Virus record (IMG/VR): IMGVR_UViG_2773857716_000001
Location: 1 to 64,000 of that record
DNA from: a virus
Taxonomy: Duplodnaviria; Caudoviricetes
DNA length: 64,000 nt
Reading direction: 5' to 3' (one strand)
The notes beneath the pieces are model-generated. The model searched no databases. It was given only the letters and a program-made list of their open reading frames with translations, and was not told the origin of the DNA. Shown in pieces: positions 4,957 through 37,895 of this stretch (positions are counted from its first letter, which is position 1; the number at the start of each line of letters is the position of its first letter). The position numbers and the translations under genes were made by a program.

Positions 4957-5021
4957 CCCACGCCGGGGCAACGCCCCGCACCAAACCGCGACAGCATGGA
5001 CACCCGCCCAAGGAGCCCCGC

Positions 5022-5931: not shown

Positions 5932-6245
5932 TTGTCACGCTGGCCGTGATCGCCGCCCTGGCCGTCGGGTACCTCGCTGGCCGCACCCGCCCGATCGAAG
6001 CCCTCGACAACCGCCTCAATCCCTGGATCTGGAAGCAGGCCCGCCACGCCAGCGCCAAGCGGCACCCCGGTTGGTGGATCGCTCAGATCTACTTCCTCGG
6101 CTTCATCCTCATCCACCCGATCCAGGCCATGAGTAACCGCCGGGAAAACCAGCGTCGGCGTGCTGAATCGGCCCAAACGCCATGTTTCAAGCCTGCCTTC
6201 GACCCGAACTGGGCCGTCAACCGGACCAAGAAGGAGCAGCAGTGA
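5928..6245 (+). CDS. Membrane protein
   Basis: N-terminal and central hydrophobic segments; ends EQQ*. Confidence 0.65.
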   Translation: MIVTLAVIAALAVGYLAGRTRPIEALDNRLNPWIWKQARHASAKRHPGWWIAQIYFLGFILIHPIQAMSNRRENQRRRAESAQTPCFKPAFDPNWAVNRTKKEQQ

Positions 6246-6727
6246 CCAACACCATCCCTGACTCCCTCGCCAGCTACCTGCAGCAGCGACAGGCCGCCCA
6301 CGCCGACAGGGTCCGCGCCGTTCTCGCCGCCCTCACCGGCTGGGAGCAGGCGCTGGTCCATGACGCAGCCGTCATGGGCTACGTCCAGGGCATGCGGCAC
6401 CCCGAGGGCGAGCCCATCGGCAAGGACCGGCAGACCATCGCCCACGTCATCGACGCCTGCTTGGCGTTCCCCGACCTCTACCCGGCGATCAAATCTCTCG
6501 AGGCTTCCACGGAACGGCGGGAGACTGTCGAGTATTTCGTCCAGTGCCAGCAGCCCGACGGCACGTGGGAGCAGGCCGGCGGCACGACCCAGAACCCCGC
6601 CCTCGTCCTCCAGCGACTCGCCGCGCGCCGCCGGGCGCAGCCGGACTTCGAGTACCGCATCGCCCGGCGCACCACTACAGCCCGCGTCGTGACGTTCGAT
6701 GTGGCCGACAGCGAGGAGCAGCAGTGA
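6242..6727 (+). CDS. Hypothetical protein
   Basis: GTGA-coupled; ends EQQ*. Confidence 0.7.
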   Translation: MTNTIPDSLASYLQQRQAAHADRVRAVLAALTGWEQALVHDAAVMGYVQGMRHPEGEPIGKDRQTIAHVIDACLAFPDLYPAIKSLEASTERRETVEYFVQCQQPDGTWEQAGGTTQNPALVLQRLAARRRAQPDFEYRIARRTTTARVVTFDVADSEEQQ

Positions 6728-7215
6728 CCGACGACCTGCGGCAGCGCATCGCCTCCGCCATGGCGGAGGCTGCCGGAAGCCGCGCGTTCCGCAACACCGA
6801 CCCGGCATGGAACCACATGCGGTCCATCTGGCTCGCCCACGCCGACGCCGCCCTCGGCTCCCTCCGCCCCGAGCTGAAGCAGCTGCGGACCCGCGCCTGG
6901 AAGGCGGAACGTGCCGTCAACCTCCTCGCTGGCTCCCACCGCCGAGCCGAACAAGCCGAGGCGACCATCGCCCGCGCTGCGGAACGCCTGGCTGTATGGG
7001 AGCAGCGACTCCCCGAGACCGTGAAGCTCGCGCCCATCATCGAGACGGTCCGCCGCGACCTCGGCATCGAGGAGGCGTCGTGCGCCGAGTGCGGGCATCC
7101 CAAAGACCAGCACCAGGACGCGGACGAGCCCGTATCTGTCGGCCTGTGCACCGTGTGCGACCAGGCTGGCAGCGACGACGCCTGGCACAACTACGAACCC
7201 CAGGAGCAGCAGTGA
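6724..7215 (+). CDS. Hypothetical protein with C-terminal CxxCxH zinc motif
   Basis: CAECGHPKDQH...CTVC; ends EQQ*. Confidence 0.7.
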   Translation: MTDDLRQRIASAMAEAAGSRAFRNTDPAWNHMRSIWLAHADAALGSLRPELKQLRTRAWKAERAVNLLAGSHRRAEQAEATIARAAERLAVWEQRLPETVKLAPIIETVRRDLGIEEASCAECGHPKDQHQDADEPVSVGLCTVCDQAGSDDAWHNYEPQEQQ

Positions 7216-7762: not shown

Positions 7763-8599
7763 TTGGACAGCACCGCGCTCGCCGGCCTACTCGAGGCCCG
7801 CCGTGCCCTCATAGACCCGGCGACCGTCCCCGGCATCCAGGTCGCCCAAAACCCCGGACGCCGAGCCGCAGGCCGAGGCCTCACCCAGTCCCACGTCGAC
7901 CAAATGGCCGGCTACGACAACAACACCTACAACCGCCTCATCAACGGCAAAATCCACAACCCCAGCTTCAAGCTCCTCCGCGCCTACGCCAACGCACTCC
8001 GCCTTACCGAGCAAGAGTGGGTGGCCATGTGCCGCTACGCCCGCGGCGACGACCCCAACAGCCGCCTCCACCCCCGCTCAGGCCTCGAAGTGCCCGGCAT
8101 GTGGAAGGACGTCATCGACGGCAGCCGGCACATGGCGTACATCACCGACCAGTCGTACAACCTCCTCGCCCACAACGAGCCTTTCGTCAGCCTGTTCGCC
8201 CACCAGCAACCGCCGCCGAACATGATGGAGTGGATGTTGCTGTCCGATGAGGCACGCACCACCCTCACGGGCTGGAAGACCGTCTGGACGCCGTACGTCC
8301 TGCCACAGCTACGCGGAGCGCGCGCCATCCTGCCCGACGACGAAACCCTCGCCCGCATCGAGGACGCCGTCATCAAGGACACCGAATGCGGACCGCTGTA
8401 CGAGGAGCGCTCCACCGCCCAGGTCCACCCCGACGGGCAGGAACGCCCCCTCCTCCACCCCACGCTCGGGCCGTGCTGGGTGCAGATCTGCGCGGCAGAG
8501 CCCCTGTCCAGCCCCAACGCCCGGGTCATGTTCGTGAAGCTGAACCCCGGCGCCGACCCCTCACAGATACGCCGCCCCTACCTACGAGCCGCGGCTTGA
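7763..8599 (+). CDS. MmyB-family transcriptional regulator (XRE HTH plus PAS-like ligand-binding domain)
   Basis: LLEARRALIDP...GRR..RGLTQ..V N-terminus, HTH, then AYITDQSYNLLAHN, NMMEWML and HPTLG, typical of the MmyB/MltR LBD; TTG start with AGGAG. Confidence 0.88.
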   Translation: MDSTALAGLLEARRALIDPATVPGIQVAQNPGRRAAGRGLTQSHVDQMAGYDNNTYNRLINGKIHNPSFKLLRAYANALRLTEQEWVAMCRYARGDDPNSRLHPRSGLEVPGMWKDVIDGSRHMAYITDQSYNLLAHNEPFVSLFAHQQPPPNMMEWMLLSDEARTTLTGWKTVWTPYVLPQLRGARAILPDDETLARIEDAVIKDTECGPLYEERSTAQVHPDGQERPLLHPTLGPCWVQICAAEPLSSPNARVMFVKLNPGADPSQIRRPYLRAAA

Positions 8600-8669
8600 T
8601 CACGGCCCGCCCGAGGCACACCGGGCGGGCCATCGCCGTATCGTGAAGGCTTCACCAGGGGGAGGCCTC

Positions 8670-9719
8670 ATGCCCGTGCACGTCACCCGCCCCACCATCG
8701 ACCATCCCAACCACTGGGCCACGACCGACGACATCTGCGACAACATCACCCAGCACCACCCCGACCACCCCAAACTCGGGACCGTGCTGCGCGTCATCCG
8801 CAACACCGGCGTCCAACGCCGTGCACTCCACCACCCCCTGGAATCCGAGCAGATATCCGGCAGCCTGGGTGTCGCCGACCGCAACCAGCAGGCGTGGGAC
8901 GACGCATCGAGCCTCGCCGAAACCGCCGCCGAGAGGGCCCTCGAGGAAGCCGGCCTCCAGCCGAGCGACATCACCGCGATCGTCACCAGCAACACCACCA
9001 GCTGGGCCGCCCCCGGCCTCGACGTCCACCTCGTCGAGCAGCTGCGCCTGCGCCCCGACGCCCGCCGCATCGCCCTCGCCACCGTCGGCTGTATTGGCGG
9101 CGCCCAGGCCCTCACCCGCGCCGCGGACCTCGTCGCCGCGCACCCGGGCGCCCGCGTCCTTGTCGTCGTGTCCGAGGCCCTGTCCACGATCTACCACCAC
9201 GGGGACACGTCGATGGAGTCGATGATCTACAAGGCGTTGTTCGGAGACGCCGCCTCTGCCTGCATCGTCACCGCCGACCAGCTCCAGCCGGGCATGCGCA
9301 TCGACGACACCTGGGAATATCTCCTCCCCCACTCCCGCGAACGCTACTGGGGCCGCATCGACGAGGCGGGCATTCACTTCGACTCCACCCGCGCCGCGAC
9401 CACCGCACCCACTGACGCCATGCCCGCCCTGCGTGACTGGCTCAAGCAGCACGACGGCCTCGCCCCGGCCTTCGCGGTCATCCACGCCGGCGGACCCGCC
9501 ATCCTCAACGCCGCCCAGAAAGGCCTCGGCCTCACCGCGGCACAGCTCACCCACTCCTGGGCCAGCCTCGCGCAGGTGGGCAACCTCGGCGGCGCCTCCG
9601 TCCTCGACGTGCTGCGCCGCACCCACGACACCCCACCAGCCGACGGGGACCGCGGCGTCACGCTCGCCTACGGGCCAGGGTTCGCCACCACCGCACTCAC
9701 CGGCACCTGGGTCAGCTGA
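8670..9719 (+). CDS. Type III polyketide synthase (RppA/PhlD-like chalcone synthase family)
   Basis: Catalytic triad motifs GCIGG (Cys), HAGG (His), GNLGG (Asn); LFGDAA and YGPGF; N-terminal HPDHP..LRVIRNTGV as in RppA; GGAGG RBS. Confidence 0.93.
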   Translation: MPVHVTRPTIDHPNHWATTDDICDNITQHHPDHPKLGTVLRVIRNTGVQRRALHHPLESEQISGSLGVADRNQQAWDDASSLAETAAERALEEAGLQPSDITAIVTSNTTSWAAPGLDVHLVEQLRLRPDARRIALATVGCIGGAQALTRAADLVAAHPGARVLVVVSEALSTIYHHGDTSMESMIYKALFGDAASACIVTADQLQPGMRIDDTWEYLLPHSRERYWGRIDEAGIHFDSTRAATTAPTDAMPALRDWLKQHDGLAPAFAVIHAGGPAILNAAQKGLGLTAAQLTHSWASLAQVGNLGGASVLDVLRRTHDTPPADGDRGVTLAYGPGFATTALTGTWVS

Positions 9720-10671: not shown

Positions 10672-10805
10672 GCGACCGGGCCAGCAGCATCATCGGCGCG
10701 GTCCTGGGCGTGGCTGTCGGCGGCATCCTCACCGTGTACGGGGTGCGTGTCGCCATCGACTGGGCCATCGCGCGAGCCGTGCAGGCTGGCTGAGACACTG
10801 CCGGG

Positions 10806-11105
10806 GTGCCGGCCCCACCCGAGCCCCACGAGGCCGTCGAAGCCACACCCTGGGCGCCCGGCCAGGGCCCTTCGCCCACCGTGCAGACGTGGCCGCGGAC
10901 GAGCCGGCCCGCGCTCCGCGTCTTCATCCGCGGCCAGTGGCGACGCTGCCCCGTCATCGCCGTGCACCGGTACCGGGACGGCCGGACCGCGGTGCAGGTC
11001 GACGTGCACCTGGACAGTGACACCAGCTATCAGGCCCGCACCTACCGCTGGGACCCCGACGCCATGCGCATCGCCGCCGCTGGGGACCCGCCGCTCGAGC
11101 CGTGA
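10806..11105 (+). CDS. Hypothetical protein
   Basis: GC3 bias; beta-rich small domain. Confidence 0.6.
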   Translation: MPAPPEPHEAVEATPWAPGQGPSPTVQTWPRTSRPALRVFIRGQWRRCPVIAVHRYRDGRTAVQVDVHLDSDTSYQARTYRWDPDAMRIAAAGDPPLEP

Positions 11106-11192
11106 ACGTGGGGCGCCACACCGTCCGAGGAAGAAAGCGCCGCGGCACGACGAAGCCCCACCCAGTTCGGGCGGTGCGTCTCGGTACGTGGA

Positions 11193-12425
11193 TCAATCCG
11201 ACGGCTCCCTGCCAGGGTGGTGGTTTGAGCGATGCGGCAACCCGAGAGCCCTCTTCCAGTTCTCCACCGTCCCCAGGCTCACCCCCAGCTCCGCGGCGAT
11301 CTGCGTCGCCGTGAAACTGGGACTGGCCCACAGTTCCCGAAGCTGGCGCTCCACTTCGGGGTCAGAGATCTGAGGGCGAGCAGCATACGGGCGCCTGGGC
11401 TGCGTAAGCAGGCCCCGCTTCCGCGCCGCCACGCGCTCACGAACTTCGCGCCGCATGCGCTCAAGACACTCACGTCGAGCCTCATCCAGCCTCGCCCTAA
11501 ACTCAGGGTCAGCTCTCAATCTCTTCAGGCGACCAAGGGGTAACCCGCATCGCCTGGCAGCCTCGGCGAACGCCACGGGCTCCTGCTCGAAGATCTCCAC
11601 CAGCTGGGCGACGAAGCTCTCGTCTGTGCGCGCCGCCGCGTCGCCGCCTGTCCGACGGCTCGGGAGATCGAGCTTCCTGCGCCACCTGCTGATGGTCTGC
11701 GGGTGGACGCTGAACCGTTCTGCGATCTCGGAGATCGGGACTGAGGGGTCAGACCATGCGGCACGCAGGCTAGCCACCTCCTCTGCCGTCAGCTGCGAGA
11801 GCGGGGTCTGGTCCTGCCATCGCGCCGCGATGAACGCCGCATTCAGGTCCGGATGTTCCCGCCGCCATTTGTCGACCTTGAAGCGGCTAACGTCCGGGCC
11901 TGCCGCCTCCAGAGCATCCGGGATGGAACACCCCTGCTTCAGCAGCGCAGTGAAGCGATCCGGGGGAGACATGGAAGCGAGCTTGAAATGCCGCTCCAGA
12001 GCCACGAATGACGGGCAGTGCCGCCACTCGGAGGGCCCTGCGGGTGCCTGCTCAGGGCTGGCGGACCCCTTGAGCGCGAGAAGGTATGCGCACGCCGCCT
12101 CCACGGCCTCGATCAAGTCGCCGCCGCCGTCCGGGGTGTCTTCGTGGCGGGCGATGGCGGCAGCGAGACGCGGATGTCCAGGCGCCGAGGCCCGCACCCG
12201 CTTCGGCGGCACCCCGACTGAACGCGACGCCTCGGGCAGGGTCATCCCCAGGTCCATCTGCTCCGCGACACGGTCGAGCAGGGCGGATGGCGGGGCGTTC
12301 TTGCGGCGGCGCGCCTCCTTGGTCTCGTCGTTGTGCGCCCGCCGGCAGTCAACGCACCGCCCGCCGAGCCGCCAACCGTAAGGGGTCCCGCAGTGCTTCG
12401 TAGGCGCCTCGCACGACCCCGCCAC
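11193..12425 (-). CDS. Multi-HTH DNA-binding protein with N-terminal zinc finger
   Basis: HCGTPYGW...RCVDCR motif and several HTH repeats (ISEIAERFSVHPQTISRW, ATQIAAELGVSLGTVENW); GTG overlaps the upstream TAG. Confidence 0.75.
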   Translation of the reverse strand: MAGSCEAPTKHCGTPYGWRLGGRCVDCRRAHNDETKEARRRKNAPPSALLDRVAEQMDLGMTLPEASRSVGVPPKRVRASAPGHPRLAAAIARHEDTPDGGGDLIEAVEAACAYLLALKGSASPEQAPAGPSEWRHCPSFVALERHFKLASMSPPDRFTALLKQGCSIPDALEAAGPDVSRFKVDKWRREHPDLNAAFIAARWQDQTPLSQLTAEEVASLRAAWSDPSVPISEIAERFSVHPQTISRWRRKLDLPSRRTGGDAAARTDESFVAQLVEIFEQEPVAFAEAARRCGLPLGRLKRLRADPEFRARLDEARRECLERMRREVRERVAARKRGLLTQPRRPYAARPQISDPEVERQLRELWASPSFTATQIAAELGVSLGTVENWKRALGLPHRSNHHPGREPSD

Positions 12426-12895
12426 TAGACGGCTCCGTTGCGCAGTTCTCGTCCGCGCGCCGCCTGTGGCGCCGAGCCGGACGCCACTTCCACGTCGGAC
12501 GCGTAGGCGATGCGCAGCGCCGGCACCTCCTGGGCGACGCGGGCCACCACCGCCCGGTGCCACGCCGCGGGAAACGGGACCTCCGGATGCGCGGCGTGGT
12601 ACTCCTCATCCGTCCGGTAGGTCACTGCCCCCGGTTCCGGCGTGTCCATCAACTGGTCGACGATGCCGCCCACGAACTCGCCGGTGCGCCGCTCCAGATC
12701 CTCCACCTCAAGTCGGACGCCGTCGGGGATGGCGTACTTGCCAGCCTCCCAGTGCCGCACGGTGCGGGCGGACACGCCCAGGTGCTGTCCGAGCCACTCC
12801 GGGGTGACGTTCAGGTACTCGCGGACCACGCGCAGTTCGGCGTCCGTCATCCGCTCGTCCTCCGGCATGCCGGGCGGGTCGGTGTAGTCGGTCAT
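12425..12895 (-). CDS. DUF1870 / Aca2-YdiL-like HTH regulator
   Basis: MTDAELRVVREYLNVTPEWLGQHLGVSARTVRHWEAGKYAIP plus C-terminal TYRTDEEY...WHRAVVARV, resembling DUF1870/Aca2. Confidence 0.7.
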   Translation of the reverse strand: MTDYTDPPGMPEDERMTDAELRVVREYLNVTPEWLGQHLGVSARTVRHWEAGKYAIPDGVRLEVEDLERRTGEFVGGIVDQLMDTPEPGAVTYRTDEEYHAAHPEVPFPAAWHRAVVARVAQEVPALRIAYASDVEVASGSAPQAARGRELRNGAV

Positions 12896-12951
12896 TGGGT
12901 CCTCCATGCGAAGGCGGCCCCAGGGGGCACCTGGGGCCGCGGGCGGTTCGG

Positions 12952-13257
12952 TCAGTTGGTGGCGCGGGAGACGGTGACGACGCCGCCCGTGGGGACGGGC
13001 TCCCAGTCGCCTTCAACGGTCCAGCCGGCAGCCTCCAGGAGGCTCTGCGCTTCCTTCTCGGCGCGGCCGGTACTGCTGTCAGCGGCGGGAACTCCGGTCA
13101 CCGCGTGGAACAGCGGGTCGCCCTGGGAGGACCAAGCGCCGTCGTTCGCAGGGTTGTCGCCGATGAGTTCGTCCTCCAGGACGGTGACGTCGATGTTGGG
13201 CTGGTCCAGGCAGGAGGCGTCGGTGGTGAGCCAGGCGGTGAAGTGAGTGGTGGTCAT
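12952..13257 (-). CDS. Small acidic hypothetical protein (candidate anti-defence protein)
   Basis: GGAAGGA RBS, about 101 aa, D/E-rich, immediately upstream of the Aca2-like gene. Confidence 0.7.
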   Translation of the reverse strand: MTTTHFTAWLTTDASCLDQPNIDVTVLEDELIGDNPANDGAWSSQGDPLFHAVTGVPAADSSTGRAEKEAQSLLEAAGWTVEGDWEPVPTGGVVTVSRATN

Positions 13258-13318
13258 GTCCGGGTCCTTCCGGTTGCGGCCTGGGGCTTCTCCCCGGGCC
13301 GGGATTGGTGAGAGGGGT

Positions 13319-13849
13319 TCAGAGGGCGGCGATGGCGGTGCGGATGCCGGCGACCGTGCGGGCGACGAGGTTGATGGTGTCGCGCTCGCCGTTGAGGTAG
13401 CGGATCTCGAACTCATCGGCGCCGCGGTGCTGGGCGTAGAGCTGACCGTCGGCCGCGTCGAAGTAGATCTTGTCGATGGCGCCAAGCAGCTGACCGGCGC
13501 GGTTGTTGGCGATGCCGCGGCCGCCGAGGGATGCGGAGGAGATGCTGCCGGAGCCGTAGCGCTCGACCTCGATGCCCGCGAACTGGGCCCAGTCGTTGAG
13601 GTAGACGCGGTCCATGGTGCCGCGCTGCCAGCGGTTGCCGCCGATAGCGGTCATCGTCTCGATGGTGAAGGCGACGGCCTTCTTTGCGGGACGCTTGAGG
13701 GCACCGATGGTGATGCGGTGGGCGAGGGAGGCGGTGTCGATGATCCAGCGGCCGGCCTGCTTGGTGGCGGCGACGACGCCCTTGCGGCACCAGGTGCGGA
13801 TGGTGGCGACGGTGACGTGGGCTTCAAGTGCGGCGGCGGTGGTGTTCAT
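13319..13849 (-). CDS. Protein with N-terminal HTH_17/MerR-like domain and unknown C-terminal domain
   Basis: TTAAALEAHVTVATIRTWCRKGVV...GRWII; RVYLND motif. Confidence 0.8.
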   Translation of the reverse strand: MNTTAAALEAHVTVATIRTWCRKGVVAATKQAGRWIIDTASLAHRITIGALKRPAKKAVAFTIETMTAIGGNRWQRGTMDRVYLNDWAQFAGIEVERYGSGSISSASLGGRGIANNRAGQLLGAIDKIYFDAADGQLYAQHRGADEFEIRYLNGERDTINLVARTVAGIRTAIAAL

Positions 13850-13902
13850 CGACCGGTTCCTTCCGGCGGGGTCTGGGGCTTTCCCCTGACCTCATAACGA
13901 CA

Positions 13903-13931
13903 ACTTTAGCTTCCAGATCTGGAAGCCGCAA
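13903..13931 (-). promoter_or_regulatory. Housekeeping-type promoter with a perfect palindromic operator in the spacer
   Basis: TTGCGG-N17-TAAAGT; GCTTCCAGATCTGGAAGC at 13909-13926 is a perfect 18-bp palindrome. Confidence 0.75.
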
Positions 13932-13984
13932 GGGGTGGTGGCGAATCAGATTTGCACCACCTGCAAAACCCCAGCCCAGACGCA

Positions 13985-14021
13985 CGAAAGAGCCCCACCG
14001 CCCGAAGGCAGTGGGGCTCTC
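13985..14021 (-). terminator. Intrinsic terminator
   Basis: AGAGCCCCAC...GTGGGGCTCT stem followed by TTCG on the minus strand, after the NERD gene. Confidence 0.65.
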
Positions 14022-14038
14022 GAGGGTGGCCCCCTCGG

Positions 14039-14665
14039 TTACGTGTACGACGGTAGCCGGATCGCCGCCAACCTGGCCAGGAGTTCCGCCCCGGCCGGAT
14101 CCGCCGGTCCGACGTTGGCCCGCAGCAGCTCCAGCAGCCGGTCCGCGGGAAACAGGGCGACGCCGCGCACGCGGAACCCTGCGCCGTCTACCGGGGCGTT
14201 GTGCACCACGATCAGCGGCGTCACCGGCACACCACCCAGCGCCTTCGACACCTCCCTCGTCTCCCACAGCGCCGTATCGACCTGCCGGTCCCGGTCGGCG
14301 CCGCCGTGCATCAGCCGGCCACCGACGAGGCGCACCACCCGCGGCTGACCTTCTTCGTCCCGCGCAGCCCACAGCTTCGAGTCCAGCGTGAACACCTGCC
14401 CGTCCCGCCCGACCAGCACGTGGTCGACGTTCGCCGACCGCCCCACGCGCCGGTCCGGCAGCACATGCCAGCCCTCGCGCAGCAGCGGTTGGAGCATGGC
14501 GTGGGTGCGCTTCTCCCCGACCGAGCCCGCTGCGCAGCGCTCCCTGTGGCGGCGCTTGCGGCCCATCTCCGGCGTCTCCACACCCACCGCGGCCACCAGG
14601 TGCTGCCACCACCGCAGACGCCCCTGCTCGCGGCCCCACGCGGCCGCAGACTGTCCCGCGATCAC
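14039..14665 (-). CDS. NERD-domain (PD-D/ExK) nuclease
   Basis: GSVGEKRT...ANVDHVLVGRDGQVFTLDSKLW. Confidence 0.85.
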   Translation of the reverse strand: MIAGQSAAAWGREQGRLRWWQHLVAAVGVETPEMGRKRRHRERCAAGSVGEKRTHAMLQPLLREGWHVLPDRRVGRSANVDHVLVGRDGQVFTLDSKLWAARDEEGQPRVVRLVGGRLMHGGADRDRQVDTALWETREVSKALGGVPVTPLIVVHNAPVDGAGFRVRGVALFPADRLLELLRANVGPADPAGAELLARLAAIRLPSYT

Positions 14666-15126
14666 CGCCTACCTCCCGCAGCAACGACGCCCGCGGCGAT
14701 GGCGATCCAGCCCTTATGCCACGCCTGGTCGATCCGGTAGCCGGCCTGTGGGTCCCGGGTGAGCCAGCCGCCCTTCCTCGCCCGGTGCGCGGCGCGGACC
14801 ATCCGCGTCGTCGGCTGCTTCTCGGGGTCTTCGGCCCAGCGTCCGCCGGAGCGATCCGCGGCGTAGTGCGTGACGGCGGAGACGAGGAGCCCGGCCGTGG
14901 CGTAGCGCCAGTTGAGGCGCAGCCCCAGGCCGCGGTCCGCGGCCACGAGTGCGAGGGCCTGCGTGGCGGTGTACGAGGCGACGTGGCGCAGGCACGCGAC
15001 GCGGCCCTTGGCGCCCTCCTTCCCTTTGTCGACGGCATCCTCATCGACCTGCACGATGTGGTCGGCGACCTCATGCGCGGCCGTCAGGGCGGCGTACGCG
15101 GCGGAGAACTGTACGGCGCGATTCAC
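14662..15126 (-). CDS. Membrane protein (DUF3307-like)
   Basis: HEVADHIVQ, HVASY, THYAADR, DQAWH motifs with TM segments. Confidence 0.7.
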   Translation of the reverse strand: MNRAVQFSAAYAALTAAHEVADHIVQVDEDAVDKGKEGAKGRVACLRHVASYTATQALALVAADRGLGLRLNWRYATAGLLVSAVTHYAADRSGGRWAEDPEKQPTTRMVRAAHRARKGGWLTRDPQAGYRIDQAWHKGWIAIAAGVVAAGGRR

Positions 15127-15320
15127 CGGTGGTCCTCCGGTCGGTCCATGGAGTACGTGGCGAGGAGAGTCAGACCTGCCGCGGCGGCGAGCACCACGAC
15201 GAAGGCGATCGGGAACGGCAGCTGGTCACCGATGAGGTAGGCGCCGGTCATGACGATTGCGGCTATCACGACCGCGACGACAAGCTCGGCGCGCTCGTGG
15301 CGGCGCGTGGTTTCAGGCAT
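15123..15320 (-). CDS. Small membrane protein
   Basis: Two hydrophobic helices; coupled to the next gene. Confidence 0.65.
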   Translation of the reverse strand: MPETTRRHERAELVVAVVIAAIVMTGAYLIGDQLPFPIAFVVVLAAAAGLTLLATYSMDRPEDHR

Positions 15321-15433
15321 GGCGATTAGACCCCTTCCAGGGCTGGTGTGACTGTGAGTGGTGACGGGCGGGACGCTTTGGGTCTCCGCCCGGTGATGGT
15401 GTCTAAGATGTCCGGTTCATCGCGGCGAACTGG

Positions 15434-34671: not shown

Positions 34672-36135
34672 TCACGCCGCAGACCGGGACTGGACGGTCA
34701 GCAGTCCGCCCTGCTGGCCGCCGGAGGGGCAGCCGAACGGGGAGCAGCCCTGCACCTCGTCCTCCTCTTCCTCCAGCTCCAGCTCCCCTTCGAAGGCCAG
34801 GTCGAGGAGGTCGCCCTGTTCGAACTCTCGGCGCTGTATGCGGTCGATGGGGGCCTGGTCCAGCGGCAGAGCCGAGATGTGTAGGAAGCGTTCGCCGTCC
34901 AGGCCTGGGCCGGTACGGAAGCGGTGGTCGAAGTCGACGGCGCGCTGCCACTCGGCGGGATTGGTGTCCCGCATGCGGCGCCAGGAGGCGTTGGAGCGGT
35001 ACGGGCAGAAGTAGCAAGCGGACTTCGGGGTGGAGGCCCAGCCGCGGGAGGCGAGGTATGCCCGGCACTGGGTGCGGGTCATGTTCAGTTCCAGCAGCGG
35101 GTGCCGGCTACGGCTGTAGCGGGAGTCCTTGATGTCGGAGGCTCGGTCGATTTCGTCGGTGGAGAACCCGACCCACTGCTCGACCCACTTTCCGGCCGGG
35201 GGCTGGCCGATGCGGCTGAGGCTTCCCAAGCCGCCGCAGACCGAGCACTCGCCGGTCTCGTCCTCACCGCGCTTGGCGCGCCAGGGAGCGACGCGCTGCC
35301 CGGCGCCGTCGCACTTGTTGCAGGGGCGCTCGGCGCCGGCCTTGGCGCCGAGGAGGAGGCGGACCTGCTCCATGATTCCGCGGATCTTGTATTTCTGGGT
35401 GCAGAAGCGTCGGATCATGCCCAGGTCGCGTTCCTGGACCATCTGCCAGGCCACCGGGATCCGTCCGCTGGAGTTGCAGCTCGCGCACGGGGCCGGCATC
35501 ACGTCGAGTCCCAGTCGCTTCATAGCTCGGGCCACGGTAGCTTCCGGGACCGGCGCATAGCCATCCTCCGGACCCATCGTGGGGTTCTCGGCGGCGGCCT
35601 GCTCCAACTCGGCCAGCGTCACCCGGCCGTTCTCGCGACGCCTGGCAGCCATAGGAAGCTCATCGAAGAGCCCCCTCCATGCCTTCTGGTCGGCCAGGAC
35701 CCGGAAGCGAGCCCACCCGCAGCCTTCGCCGGCGCCGTCCAAGCCGTCATCGGATGTCGTGGTCTGGCCGCACAGCTTCCACGCGGCGACCCGCTTGACC
35801 GTGCGCCACTTCGAAGCGGTGAATGCCGGGATGGACGACATCTTGTTCGGGTCGAACAAGTCGTTGTCGAGGTTGCCGTACTGGACGCGGATGATGGGGA
35901 TGCCGGCCGGGCGGGCAATCTCCCGCTCCAGGCGGTCGAGGTGGTCGTACACCTCCTGCGGCTCTGCGCCGGTGTCAGCGAAGATCGCGTAGTCCAGCTT
36001 GGGGAGCACGCCCTCTGCGGACAGCATCAGTAGCGTCGTGGACTGCACCCCTGCCCCTAGGGACAGGACCCGCAGTGTTGGGGTGTCGGTGACGTCGCCC
36101 TCAATGACTCGCTTGGCGACGGTGGAGATGGTCAT
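34672..36135 (-). CDS. Phage PAPS-reductase-like (PP-loop adenine nucleotide alpha-hydrolase) protein with Cys-rich insertions; alternative start at 36270
   Basis: LSLGAGVQST, IFADTGAE, RFCTQKYKI, VGFSTDE, HPLLE, KSACYFCPY. Confidence 0.78.
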   Translation of the reverse strand: MTISTVAKRVIEGDVTDTPTLRVLSLGAGVQSTTLLMLSAEGVLPKLDYAIFADTGAEPQEVYDHLDRLEREIARPAGIPIIRVQYGNLDNDLFDPNKMSSIPAFTASKWRTVKRVAAWKLCGQTTTSDDGLDGAGEGCGWARFRVLADQKAWRGLFDELPMAARRRENGRVTLAELEQAAAENPTMGPEDGYAPVPEATVARAMKRLGLDVMPAPCASCNSSGRIPVAWQMVQERDLGMIRRFCTQKYKIRGIMEQVRLLLGAKAGAERPCNKCDGAGQRVAPWRAKRGEDETGECSVCGGLGSLSRIGQPPAGKWVEQWVGFSTDEIDRASDIKDSRYSRSRHPLLELNMTRTQCRAYLASRGWASTPKSACYFCPYRSNASWRRMRDTNPAEWQRAVDFDHRFRTGPGLDGERFLHISALPLDQAPIDRIQRREFEQGDLLDLAFEGELELEEEEDEVQGCSPFGCPSGGQQGGLLTVQSRSAA

Positions 36136-36269
36136 GCGGAGGTCCTTTCCGTGAGCAGGGTCTGTGGGCCGCGTGGGTGGCGCGGCAACGGGTGAGGCCG
36201 GGAGGGCCGGAGCGACGACCGCTTCGGCCGGCACTTCCCGCCCCTCCACATCCAGCTGCGCACCTGTCA

Positions 36270-37895
36270 TCAGGCGGCGACCGCCAACTTCGCGGCGCCG
36301 CCCTGCTCCTCGTAACGAGACAGTTCCTCGCCGCTGATGGCCTCGACCAGCGCGCACAGCAGCACCTCGGCGGCGTTCGGCGTGACGGCGTTCCCGTACT
36401 GGCGCACCCGCTCCCGCTTCGAGCCGAGGACCGTGTAGTCGTCAGCAAAGGACATCGCGCGGCCGATCTCGTGCGGCTCAAGCATGCGGAACCGCACATC
36501 TTCGATGGCCGGCTGGCCGTTCACCAGGGCGTACCGGTCCCGAGTCGTCAGGGCACCCACAGGGGCGGTGACGGGCCGGGCGGCGCCGTTGCCGTAGTAC
36601 GGGACCAGGAGGTGCTCGGTGATGCTGTCCGGAGTGACCAGGCCGTGATGGTTGCCAGAGGCGCACACGGTGGCGAGGGCCTCGGAGACGGAGCGGGCGA
36701 CTGATCCGCCGCCGCGCAACTCTGCGACGAACGGCAACCAGGCCAATCCCGTTTCGTTGCGGGTGGTCTGCGCTCGCAAAGGCAGGGCCGCCGAGGTCGC
36801 AGACTTCCCGTCTCGTCCTTCGACGGGCACCATCAGCGGCGGCACCGCGAGCGCGTCGTTCTCGCGGGTGGTGCGGGTCGGCATGGGATCCAGCACGCTT
36901 GACGCGTCGTTGCGCCATGTCCCGCCCGCGGGAACCATCATCGGCACCGGGGTGGCGAACCGCTCCAGTCCGGCCTTGATCCGGGCGAGGGTCTTGTCCG
37001 CCAGGGGCCGGGCCCGGTCGCCGATGCGCTGGCCGGGGATCGACCAGTCGATCGCAGCCAGCGCGGGCAGCGCATCCGGCTCCACCACGCTGTTGCGGCA
37101 CGTGGTGTGAGGGCAGCGGTAGACGTACTGCTGGCGGTAACGACCCATGTCGACGCCAGGGCGCTTCCACGACTGCACGGCCCGCACCCACTCGTCGCAC
37201 GTCTCGCACCAGGCCCGCGGCCGCAGCCACTTGTCCCAGTCAGGCGTGCGGCCCAGCGACTCGTGCCAGTAGCCGACGTACAGCCGGTCACGGGACTGCG
37301 GGGCCCGGTGAACGGTGCGGGGGTCGGCGTGCATGCTGTTCAGGGCGATGATGTGGGTGCGGTAGCCCATCTTGTGGATCTCGCCGATCCACCGGTCCCA
37401 CTGGTCCCACGACCGCACGTCCACGACGTTCTCGACGATGCCGGCCTTGACCAGGCCGCCGCGTTCTATGACACCCCGCAGGTACAGCGGCACCTCCTCC
37501 ATCAGCGCCCGGGACTCTTCCTCCAGCGTCGGGCCGCCCTCGTCGTCGGCCTCGAACTTGCTCTGCTCGATCGCGGCGTACAGGTCGAGGAGATCGCCCT
37601 GCATCGCGTTGACGAAGTCCCGCTTCTTGCCCTTGGCCACGCTCCAGTTGGTGCACTCCGGAGACGCCCAGAAGATGTCGGTGACCGGCCACGCCCACAC
37701 CGGCGCCTTGCGGATGTCGCCGCGGTAGTGGTCGGCGTCCGGGAAGTTCGCGGCGTGCGACTCGATCGCCCGCTCCCAGTGGTTCGCCGCTCGGGCCACC
37801 CTCAGGCCAGGCACGGCGTGCGCGCCCTGGGAGGAGCCGCCGGCCCCGCAGAACCAGTCCATGACGGTCAAAGCGTCGTTGTCGTTGCGGTACAT
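36270..37895 (-). CDS. DNA (cytosine-5) methyltransferase
   Basis: Motif I FCGAGG, IV SPEC, VI ENV, VIII QSRDR, X QYGNAV. Confidence 0.92.
   Translation of the reverse strand: MYRNDNDALTVMDWFCGAGGSSQGAHAVPGLRVARAANHWERAIESHAANFPDADHYRGDIRKAPVWAWPVTDIFWASPECTNWSVAKGKKRDFVNAMQGDLLDLYAAIEQSKFEADDEGGPTLEEESRALMEEVPLYLRGVIERGGLVKAGIVENVVDVRSWDQWDRWIGEIHKMGYRTHIIALNSMHADPRTVHRAPQSRDRLYVGYWHESLGRTPDWDKWLRPRAWCETCDEWVRAVQSWKRPGVDMGRYRQQYVYRCPHTTCRNSVVEPDALPALAAIDWSIPGQRIGDRARPLADKTLARIKAGLERFATPVPMMVPAGGTWRNDASSVLDPMPTRTTRENDALAVPPLMVPVEGRDGKSATSAALPLRAQTTRNETGLAWLPFVAELRGGGSVARSVSEALATVCASGNHHGLVTPDSITEHLLVPYYGNGAARPVTAPVGALTTRDRYALVNGQPAIEDVRFRMLEPHEIGRAMSFADDYTVLGSKRERVRQYGNAVTPNAAEVLLCALVEAISGEELSRYEEQGGAAKLAVAA

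Follow-up and report, generated by a model that had tools for sequence, protein, structure and literature searches.

We analysed the first 64 kb (64,000 nucleotides, hereafter the window) of the 92,558-bp IMG/VR virus record IMGVR_UViG_2773857716_000001, which has a G+C content of 69%. Its minus strand carries an operon of four genes, A to D, headed by a promoter-like sequence whose spacer is filled by a palindrome and including, as gene C, a regulator of the anti-CRISPR-associated (Aca) family Aca2. We propose, with a probability of roughly 65%, that this is a self-contained accessory operon of a ~90-kb Streptomyces phage-plasmid, run by its own predicted Aca2-family repressor. The elements that the original prediction had laid out along the minus strand were confirmed in the sequence, each in its place. 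Related loci are given by label (L and a number) where they need to be told apart.

Gene C (12425-12895, minus strand; 156 amino acids, aa) is the predicted autorepressor of the operon. It had been described as an Aca2/DUF1870-like helix-turn-helix (HTH) gene, and a profile search bore this out, with a match to Pfam family PF08965 (Aca2_YdiL/DUF1870) at 31.0 bits over residues 16-105 (cut-off 23.8); BLASTP and a profile search of the PDB agreed. By BLASTP, C aligned with gp30 of Pectobacterium phage ZF40 (34% identity over 113 aa, E 2e-17), and a tblastn search of phage records with C also matched ZF40 at the gp30 locus. We take gp30 to be Aca2 and gp31 to be AcrIF8, which is consistent with their order and sizes. 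A profile built from 33 family members retrieved the PDB entries 8w35, 7vjo, 7ezy and 7b5j (E 1.6e-11 to 3.5e-10). The matches to these Aca2 chains extend over residues 4-98 of 120 and cover both the HTH and the dimerisation part; YdiL and HigA-2 scored far worse. Homologues of C on Streptomyces plasmids are labelled "DUF1870 family protein" by the Prokaryotic Genome Annotation Pipeline (PGAP). By these sequence comparisons C is a member of the Aca2 family.

Upstream of gene A, on the minus strand, we found promoter-like hexamers (13903-13931), TTGCGG (13931-13926) and TAAAGT (13908-13903), separated by a 17-nt spacer and recognised by sequence and by comparative spacing. The spacer is filled by the putative operator GCTTCCAGATCTGGAAGC, a perfect 18-bp palindrome (13909-13926), so that an inverted repeat overlaps the promoter of C's own operon, as is typical of Aca2; related loci keep a palindrome at the equal position. 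GCTTCCAGATCTGGAAGC occurs a single time in the 92.5-kb record, even with up to three mismatches allowed. The claim of a "strong promoter" stood in its arrangement, TTGCGG-N17-TAAAGT with the palindrome, but was not borne out in its strength, as the site is weak by the E. coli consensus. A terminator insulating the operon upstream had also been proposed, and we found there a hairpin (13990-14019; scan core 14009-13992) followed by TTTCGTG, together an intrinsic-terminator-like element at 13983-14019 on the minus strand by terminator scan and sequence. From its sequence this terminator-like hairpin is expected to end the transcript of the upstream NERD-domain gene and to insulate the operon. Another terminator-like hairpin, with a CTTTCTTCCT tail, follows gene D (11128-11152, minus strand); the terminator scan gave 2 sites against 1.3 in shuffles, and the hairpin after D is suggestive by position alone. 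Elsewhere in the window, a second perfect 18-bp palindrome (6752-6769, core CTCCGCCATGGCGGAG) lies 25 nt past the stop of the gene at 6182-6727 and may be a terminator stem or a chance occurrence, about one such palindrome being expected per record.

The same unit of promoter, palindrome and 5' untranslated region (5'UTR) was found ahead of Aca2 genes at ~60 distinct actinobacterial loci. A protein-first search of viral contigs gave 18 loci, all 18 with a palindrome-bearing TTGnnn promoter and a conserved leader 435-1270 nt upstream of aca2; the arms read CTTCC..GGAAG in 17 and were of the CACCC type in L018. We also scanned viral contigs leader-first with the DNA pattern GGTCAGGGGA-N2-5-GCCCCAGAC, and 30 of the 32 matches were palindrome-promoter-leader cassettes, the other two being one identical unrelated sequence. 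An Aca2 gene lay downstream in 25 of these 30, and the remaining five have at most 539 nt of downstream sequence. In genome contigs, a protein-alignment search recovered the unit at 31 of 39 loci (three of the eight misses have at most 416 nt upstream), from Streptomyces, Actinoplanes, Streptosporangium, Amycolatopsis, Micromonospora, Microbispora, Mycobacterium, Nocardiopsis and others. Among 59 distinct cassettes, for which the presence of TTG and TAnnnT was a selection filter, 38 had a TTGnnn-TAnnnT spacing of 17 nt and 19 one of 18 nt, and the leader begins 9-11 nt past the -10 element in 55. Some viral contigs carry elaborated versions of the unit. L021, L061 and L064 have a tandem of two promoter-operator-leader units and two Aca2 paralogues, with the first hairpin duplicated in each leader and one of the paralogues without the recognition-helix motif. 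L028 has two tandem CACCC-type palindromes (L028:4890-4950), one ahead of the -35 element and the other within the spacer, which recall the IR1/IR2 pair of other Aca2 promoters.

The palindrome arms vary among loci yet stay symmetric, and they fall into the classes GCTTCC, CACCC, CCTCC, CCCCAC and TGTCC. We compared operators with the residues of C in 49 distinct operons, L018 having been moved to the CACCC class by eye. Where the operator was CTTCC..GGAAG, His48 was present in 35 of 37 operons and Lys53 likewise in 35 of 37. With CACCC..GGGTG operators, residue 48 was Ser in 9 of 11, Ala in 2 of 11 and His in none of the 11, while all 11 had Arg53 and 10 of the 11 had Asn42. Positions 42, 48 and 53 of C align with Ser28, Tyr34 and Arg39 of ZF40 Aca2. 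The crystal structure of Aca2 on DNA shows Tyr34 and Arg39, together with Arg30, in base-specific contact with the half-site GTTC, and Ser28 in contact with a phosphate (PMC8633003). Arg44 of C, which aligns with Arg30, is nearly invariant across the 33 family members. Tyr34 and Arg39 are not kept in C, which has His48 and Lys53 instead; the variation of these two residues with operator class fits a changed specificity and does not count against Aca2 membership. By this alignment the half-sites change together with the base-contacting residues, in one or two evolutionary events only.

All 49 operons have an operator, 32 lack gene A, most lack gene D, and D-like genes occur in few loci. Because every operon has C and an operator, while A and D are mostly missing, C is the sole constant candidate for the binder. 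Gene A was considered in this role and rejected, given the 32 operons without it and an HTH that is nearly invariant behind differing palindromes. We consider it highly probable, from homology, position and comparative data, that a dimer of C binds the operator and represses its own operon.

The leader is an RNA motif that occurs twice in the operon. Copy 1 (13850-13891, minus strand), identified by fold, covariation and model match, forms the 5'UTR of gene A. In its hairpin 1 (13891-13870), an A/A mismatch divides the stem into 4+4 bp (GGUC-A-GGGG...CCCC-A-GACC), and its hairpin 2 (13868-13850) holds the Shine-Dalgarno sequence AAGGA in the loop, with the ATG of A directly after. The predicted fold has an energy of -21.8 kcal/mol (z -2.91), and 0 of 200 shuffles were as stable. 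Copy 2 (13260-13301, minus strand), identified by fold and model match, lies between A and B and consists of hairpin 1' (13301-13277) and hairpin 2' (13273-13260), again with a Shine-Dalgarno sequence in the loop, here ahead of the ATG of B (-24.3 kcal/mol, z -2.63). The covariance model matched the copies at 70.3 and 66.2 bits, respectively, both sequences being members of its training set. Similar second copies are found in L008, L010 and L087. An alignment of 41 leaders showed two-sided changes in 8 of 12 pairs, compared with 2.5 ± 1.1 in shuffles (0 of 500 reached this), and 89.4% of its cells were paired, compared with 54-58% when the 3' partners were slid by one column; about half of its rows were collected by the leader-pattern scan, so that most of hairpin 1 is predetermined in them, and hairpin 2 is misaligned in some of the divergent rows.

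Over the 92.5-kb record, the covariance model gave no convincing copy beyond these two (the next match scored 15.5 bits). As the record holds no further convincing operator or RNA-motif copies, there is no sign of a wider regulon. In a search of Rfam against the record, the leader matched no family, and the best hits (E 0.53 or worse) were located elsewhere. That C also binds the leader RNA, by analogy to ZF40 Aca2, would in our estimate be about an even bet, the near-invariance of hairpin 1 counting as a weakness. A role of hairpin 2 as a mimic of the operator half-site was considered and rejected, as it fails to follow the operator class in L018, L055 and L086. Between B and aca2 there is a further element, a G+C-rich 11-bp hairpin (12914-12940, minus strand; -26.9 kcal/mol, z -3.88). 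Strong G+C-rich hairpins at this place occur in most related loci, with a median of -26.4 kcal/mol compared with -20.7 kcal/mol in controls (Mann-Whitney p 5e-10) and energies at or below -24 kcal/mol in 73% of loci compared with 23% of control segments; the loci are related to one another, and the stem sequences differ. The hairpin is possibly an attenuator or an RNA-stabilising element.

In the circuit that we propose, host RNA polymerase would initiate at TTGCGG-N17-TAAAGT, and the mRNA would begin a few bases ahead of the two-hairpin leader, with the ribosome-binding site of A in its second hairpin. With a second leader copy preceding B, the products of A and B would be made first, and the strong hairpin after B would probably lower or shape the expression of C and D. 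As C accumulates, its dimer would settle on the 18-bp palindrome in the promoter spacer and switch transcription off. It would probably also bind the leader RNA and block translation of A and B, as ZF40 Aca2 suggests.

Gene B (12952-13257, minus strand; 101 aa) occupies a variable slot directly upstream of aca2, as judged from its composition, relatives and structural model. The protein is strongly acidic (isoelectric point, pI, 4.05; 16 D+E against 3 K+R) and has 13 relatives besides itself in a large protein database. Its model (predicted local distance difference test, pLDDT, 86.9) shares a fold with two unnamed phage proteins of BFVD (template modelling score, TM, 0.78-0.79), gave no PDB fold at E ≤ 0.001 and retrieved from ESM Atlas unnamed actinobacterial clusters only. 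We classified the cargo of the 49 operons by tblastn with 12 seeds against the DNA between leader and aca2. Between promoter and aca2 there were 17 arrangements drawn from at least 11 sequence-unrelated families: TT in 10 operons, B in 7, A with unmatched sequence in 5, MN-B in 4, A-B in 3 (the window, L008 and L015), an Aca-like paralogue in 3 and no seed match in 3; A-TT, A-F4, MN and F3 in 2 each; and gp86-like, F6, F7-F3, F4, A-F8 and F9 in 1 each. Most of the families other than A have a pI of 4.1-4.5, the exceptions being F7 (8.1), F9 (6.3) and the Aca-like paralogue (5.3-5.8). The original prediction had suggested a search by guilt-by-association for variable genes upstream of the regulator in homologous loci, and this is what the operons show: a conserved aca2 with variable small upstream genes on a mobile element, as is characteristic of acr-aca loci.

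Gene A (13319-13849, minus strand; 176 aa, pI 9.9) encodes an HTH and a C-terminal alpha/beta domain, as judged from AlphaFold, Pfam and Foldseek. The N-terminus (about residues 1-52) is a MerR/Xis-like winged HTH, with a Pfam HTH_17 match below the cut-off (19.5 bits). In a Foldseek search of the AlphaFold model (pLDDT 92.5) against the PDB, the HTH part alone resembled RacA, BldC and Xis, none of them at E ≤ 0.001. The C-terminal domain had no solved match in the PDB by fold or by sequence and no usable match in ESM Atlas. One search returned 664 relatives of A at E ≤ 0.001, many of them on contigs of 87-95 kb. Members of the A family also occur without Aca2, as the first gene behind TTGnnn promoter-like sites in the viral contigs L024 and L029-L035; in most of these the site lies ~130 nt upstream of position 5001, and in most the spacer holds a palindrome, which differs per lineage. 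Across these loci the HTH remains ~80% identical and the C-terminal domain comes in at least four interchangeable types; in L024 and L029 an acidic protein of the TT family follows the A-family gene, again without Aca2. With an HTH that barely changes from one operator to the next, A is probably not an operator-specific repressor; from the sequences it behaves as a modular payload or an element-maintenance factor.

Gene D (11193-12425, minus strand; 410 aa, pI 9.3) contains several HTH units according to library profiles. Translational coupling of C to D had been claimed, and the GTG start of D at 12425 does overlap the TAG stop of C as TAGTG; the start is not at 12428, where the codon reads CTA. 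Relatives of D follow aca2 in some loci only (L014, L015, L017, L049, L056 and L065). We rejected D as a small terminase subunit, since the terminase large subunit (72762-74294) has its own upstream partner gene; the small-terminase matches of D are limited to short HTH-sized stretches, except for one longer match to phrog_57.

The whole accessory cassette, from D to the promoter, is a 2,871-bp presence/absence block (11109-13979). Genes elsewhere in the record include a terminase large subunit, tail fibre proteins, a tyrosine integrase-like protein, a ParA-like protein, a 3'-phosphoadenosine 5'-phosphosulphate (PAPS) reductase and a DNA methyltransferase, and the closest named relatives are non-mobilizable Streptomyces plasmids of 86-94 kb. 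We read the record, from its sequence, as a Streptomyces phage-plasmid of ~90 kb because it combines phage genes (terminase, tail fibres) with plasmids as nearest relatives. The best relative is S. platensis NZ_CP108975 (locus label L109), with 83% identity over 39% of a 12-kb query. Window positions 10673-11108 align to L109 3245-3680 (88%) and 13980-15369 to L109 3678-5076 (76%); the 2,871 bp between these flanks are missing from S. platensis NZ_CP108975, and the flanks are collinear with the adjoining plasmid sequence. In this cassette-less plasmid, the stop codon of the convergent gene G is followed directly by the same hairpin. By alignment, the operon is thus inserted or deleted as one discrete block between two convergent genes, and it is considered dispensable for the element because the whole block is absent from a close relative. 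A one-cargo version is found in the S. anulatus plasmid CP109516, in the same NERD-to-PhlD region.

The operon joins a known type, as actinobacterial Aca2 operons with motifs in both DNA and RNA have been published before. According to Feussner et al. 2026 (PMC13551039), Aca2 represses through a promoter inverted repeat and through 5'UTR hairpins that include an "actino-motif", credited there to Birkholz et al. 2024 (Nature). In the Aca2 operons described there, transcription starts shortly past a DNA motif in the promoter, and RNA motifs are found both at the 5' end of the transcript and between genes. Its actino-motif loci resemble the present one in being actinobacterial Aca2 operons with a promoter DNA motif, an RNA motif just past the transcript start, RNA motifs between genes too, and mostly unannotated cargo that is proposed to be anti-defence. 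Compared by the layout described there, our leader motif is probably the published actino-motif. In the available text of PMC13551039 we did not find the cargo families, the modularity of A, the operator and helix classes, the insertion/deletion or the duplicated leader; the record or the cargo clusters may already be within the IMG/VR hit lists of the 2024 and 2026 studies. Titles and abstracts in the literature gave nothing specific on Aca2 or anti-CRISPR in Streptomyces, and no validated Streptomyces phage or plasmid anti-defence protein behind Aca2.

ZF40, the phage of the acrIF8-aca2 operon (PMC13551039), offers the closest characterised comparison (PDB 7B5J, 7VJO-Q). Both operons have a homologous regulator, an inverted repeat over their own promoter, a structured 5'UTR directly past the expected transcript start and a small gene directly upstream of aca2. 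They differ in the half-site (GCTTCC here, not GTTC), in His48/Lys53 for Tyr34/Arg39 and in the length of the regulator (156 against 116 aa). The present operon also has two cargo genes, each preceded by a copy of the RNA motif and one encoding an HTH, a coupled multi-HTH gene downstream, no validated anti-CRISPR protein (Acr) and a host phylum of Actinomycetota. Gene A, the first gene of an aca-type operon and only a candidate Acr, resembles AcrIIA1 and AcrIF24, which are Acrs fused to an HTH, in having an N-terminal HTH and a second domain (PMC9410906). A one-cargo version of the cassette is carried by the cultured lytic Streptomyces phage Gilgamesh (MN234216), in which gp86-gp87 are preceded by TTGTGG, GCTTCCAAATTTGGAAGC, TAGCGT and the leader, with a hairpin between the two genes. 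Gilgamesh gp87 is 73% identical to C, while gp86 is an acidic protein of 107 aa from a family other than B, related to the slot protein of L023. The Gilgamesh cassette has a single cargo gene and neither A nor D, and it sits between the genes for the small terminase subunit and lysin A.

What the cargo does is judged here by association: a variable acidic slot, a mobile cassette and published precedent. On this basis A and B are candidate host-defence inhibitors directed at any system, which we find plausible though short of even odds; inhibition of CRISPR-Cas in particular is rather unlikely. A fuller reading, which we offer tentatively as a minority bet, is that the slot is a reservoir of new inhibitors of actinobacterial immunity (at least 11 small, mostly acidic families including B), that the A family is a modular effector with a nearly invariant HTH and interchangeable C-terminal domains used in several operator/regulator systems, and that hairpin 1 provides translational control read independently of the operator code.

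Several observations weigh against an Aca2-controlled operon with cargo of this kind. The palindrome alone is not beyond chance, as 2 perfect 18-bp palindromes (13909 and 6752) were counted in the 92,558-bp record, compared with 0.96 ± 1.0 in 100 first-order Markov simulations. A scan of 11000-14200 for consensus promoters of the E. coli type returned 0 sites; it missed the promoter because TTGCGG matches just three of the six positions of TTGACA. From these two results one might argue that the palindrome is chance and the genes an ordinary unregulated cluster. The comparative data contradict this, as a promoter-spacer palindrome is found in ~60 distinct cassettes with symmetric changes of the half-sites, and we assign it a negligible probability; the operator is taken as real because of its position and its conservation across related loci, not because of the palindrome alone. 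The correlation of operators with residues amounts to one or two events that are not statistically independent: on a quick maximum-likelihood protein tree, built with the HTH columns included, 2 changes suffice to explain the two main operator classes and well-supported branches yield 1 independent pair, and an independent-pairs sign test had too few events for significance. Two loci, L011 and L075, break the pattern by combining Ala48 with a CTTCC operator. Hairpin 1 hardly varies, even among Aca2 lineages whose operators, recognition helices and DNA specificities are not the same, and may therefore be read by something besides the specificity residues of Aca2. Regarding the cargo, A and B matched no known Acr, anti-defence family or solved fold (Pfam, NCBIfam, PADLOC, PDB), and NCBIfam, Pfam and PADLOC gave generic HTH matches only for the cargo proteins; neither gene is a known Acr upstream of aca by family, sequence or fold. 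A known acr gene lies upstream of only 35 of 1223 (3%) Aca2-like genes (PMC9410906). Gene A is also widespread and conserved and occurs without Aca2, and as a large family of this kind it fits a typical Acr less well.

The same Aca2-type circuit could instead drive cargo that serves the element itself, in establishment, host takeover or the control of replication or transfer, with A as a DNA-binding factor and the acidic proteins as its partners or modulators. The DNA-binding HTH of A, its conservation and its 664 relatives with many on 87-95 kb contigs would suit this explanation, as would A-family genes standing first behind other palindrome promoters without Aca2 (in L024 and L029 with a TT-family protein next) and the lack of known acr linkage for most Aca2-like genes (PMC9410906). 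The whole cassette is dispensable in a close relative, however, and the slot swaps at least 11 unrelated families even where Aca2 is 75-85% identical, which is typical of arms-race genes; we regard service to the element as unlikely, while still giving it appreciable weight. The position of the cassette in a variable region adjoining a NERD-domain gene, and the fact that accessory modules of prophages often carry defence functions, might point to prophage defence or superinfection exclusion under the control of an HTH protein. Yet PADLOC gave generic HTH matches only (mad1, E 7.9e-13 for D and 0.0024 for A) and none at all for B and its slot-mates, small acidic proteins of 60-190 aa that lack an enzymatic or sensor domain are unlike known defence effectors, and lytic phage Gilgamesh has the cassette too, so that we find this explanation improbable. 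Finally, C could be a HigA/MqsA-like antitoxin with B as its toxin, since the C profile weakly matches HigA-2 antitoxins in the PDB (E ~9e-5), NCBIfam has a sub-threshold MqsA match for C, and the toxin gene comes first in HigBA systems. Aca2 structures score far better (~1e-11), B and its slot-mates are mostly acidic and come from many unrelated families, unlike HigB/MqsR toxins, and neither B nor its slot-mates match a toxin family in Pfam or NCBIfam; a toxin-antitoxin pair is very improbable.

The neighbourhood of the cassette holds further genes of interest. Directly upstream (14039-15126) lie a NERD-domain protein (phrog_38277, E 3e-47) and a membrane protein, a pair kept in related plasmids with or without the cassette. 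A type III polyketide synthase with chalcone/stilbene synthase domains is encoded at 8643-9719, its syntenic gene in related plasmids being annotated PhlD, and an MmyB-like HTH regulator (7763-8599) adjoins it within the region 7763-9719; a biosynthetic gene of this kind is unusual on a phage-like element. Further along the window (34672-37895), a PAPS reductase-like gene, DndC/SspD-like by its PHROG name, overlaps a DNA methyltransferase gene; such PAPS reductases are named as possible counter-defence genes by Feussner et al. (PMC13551039).

The operon and its relatives yield a short, ordered list of candidates, namely B, the C-terminal domain of A, and the TT, MN, gp86-like, F3 and F4 families, and they come with two tractable systems: Gilgamesh, with S. 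lividans as its host, and NBC collection strains with their ~90-kb plasmids. A ready-made test of how Aca2 reads DNA is offered by the pair of operator classes and their matching residue changes at the known base-contacting positions. If the cargo is what we suggest, Streptomyces genetics could become easier with an Acr against type I-E systems of actinobacteria, or with an anti-restriction protein.

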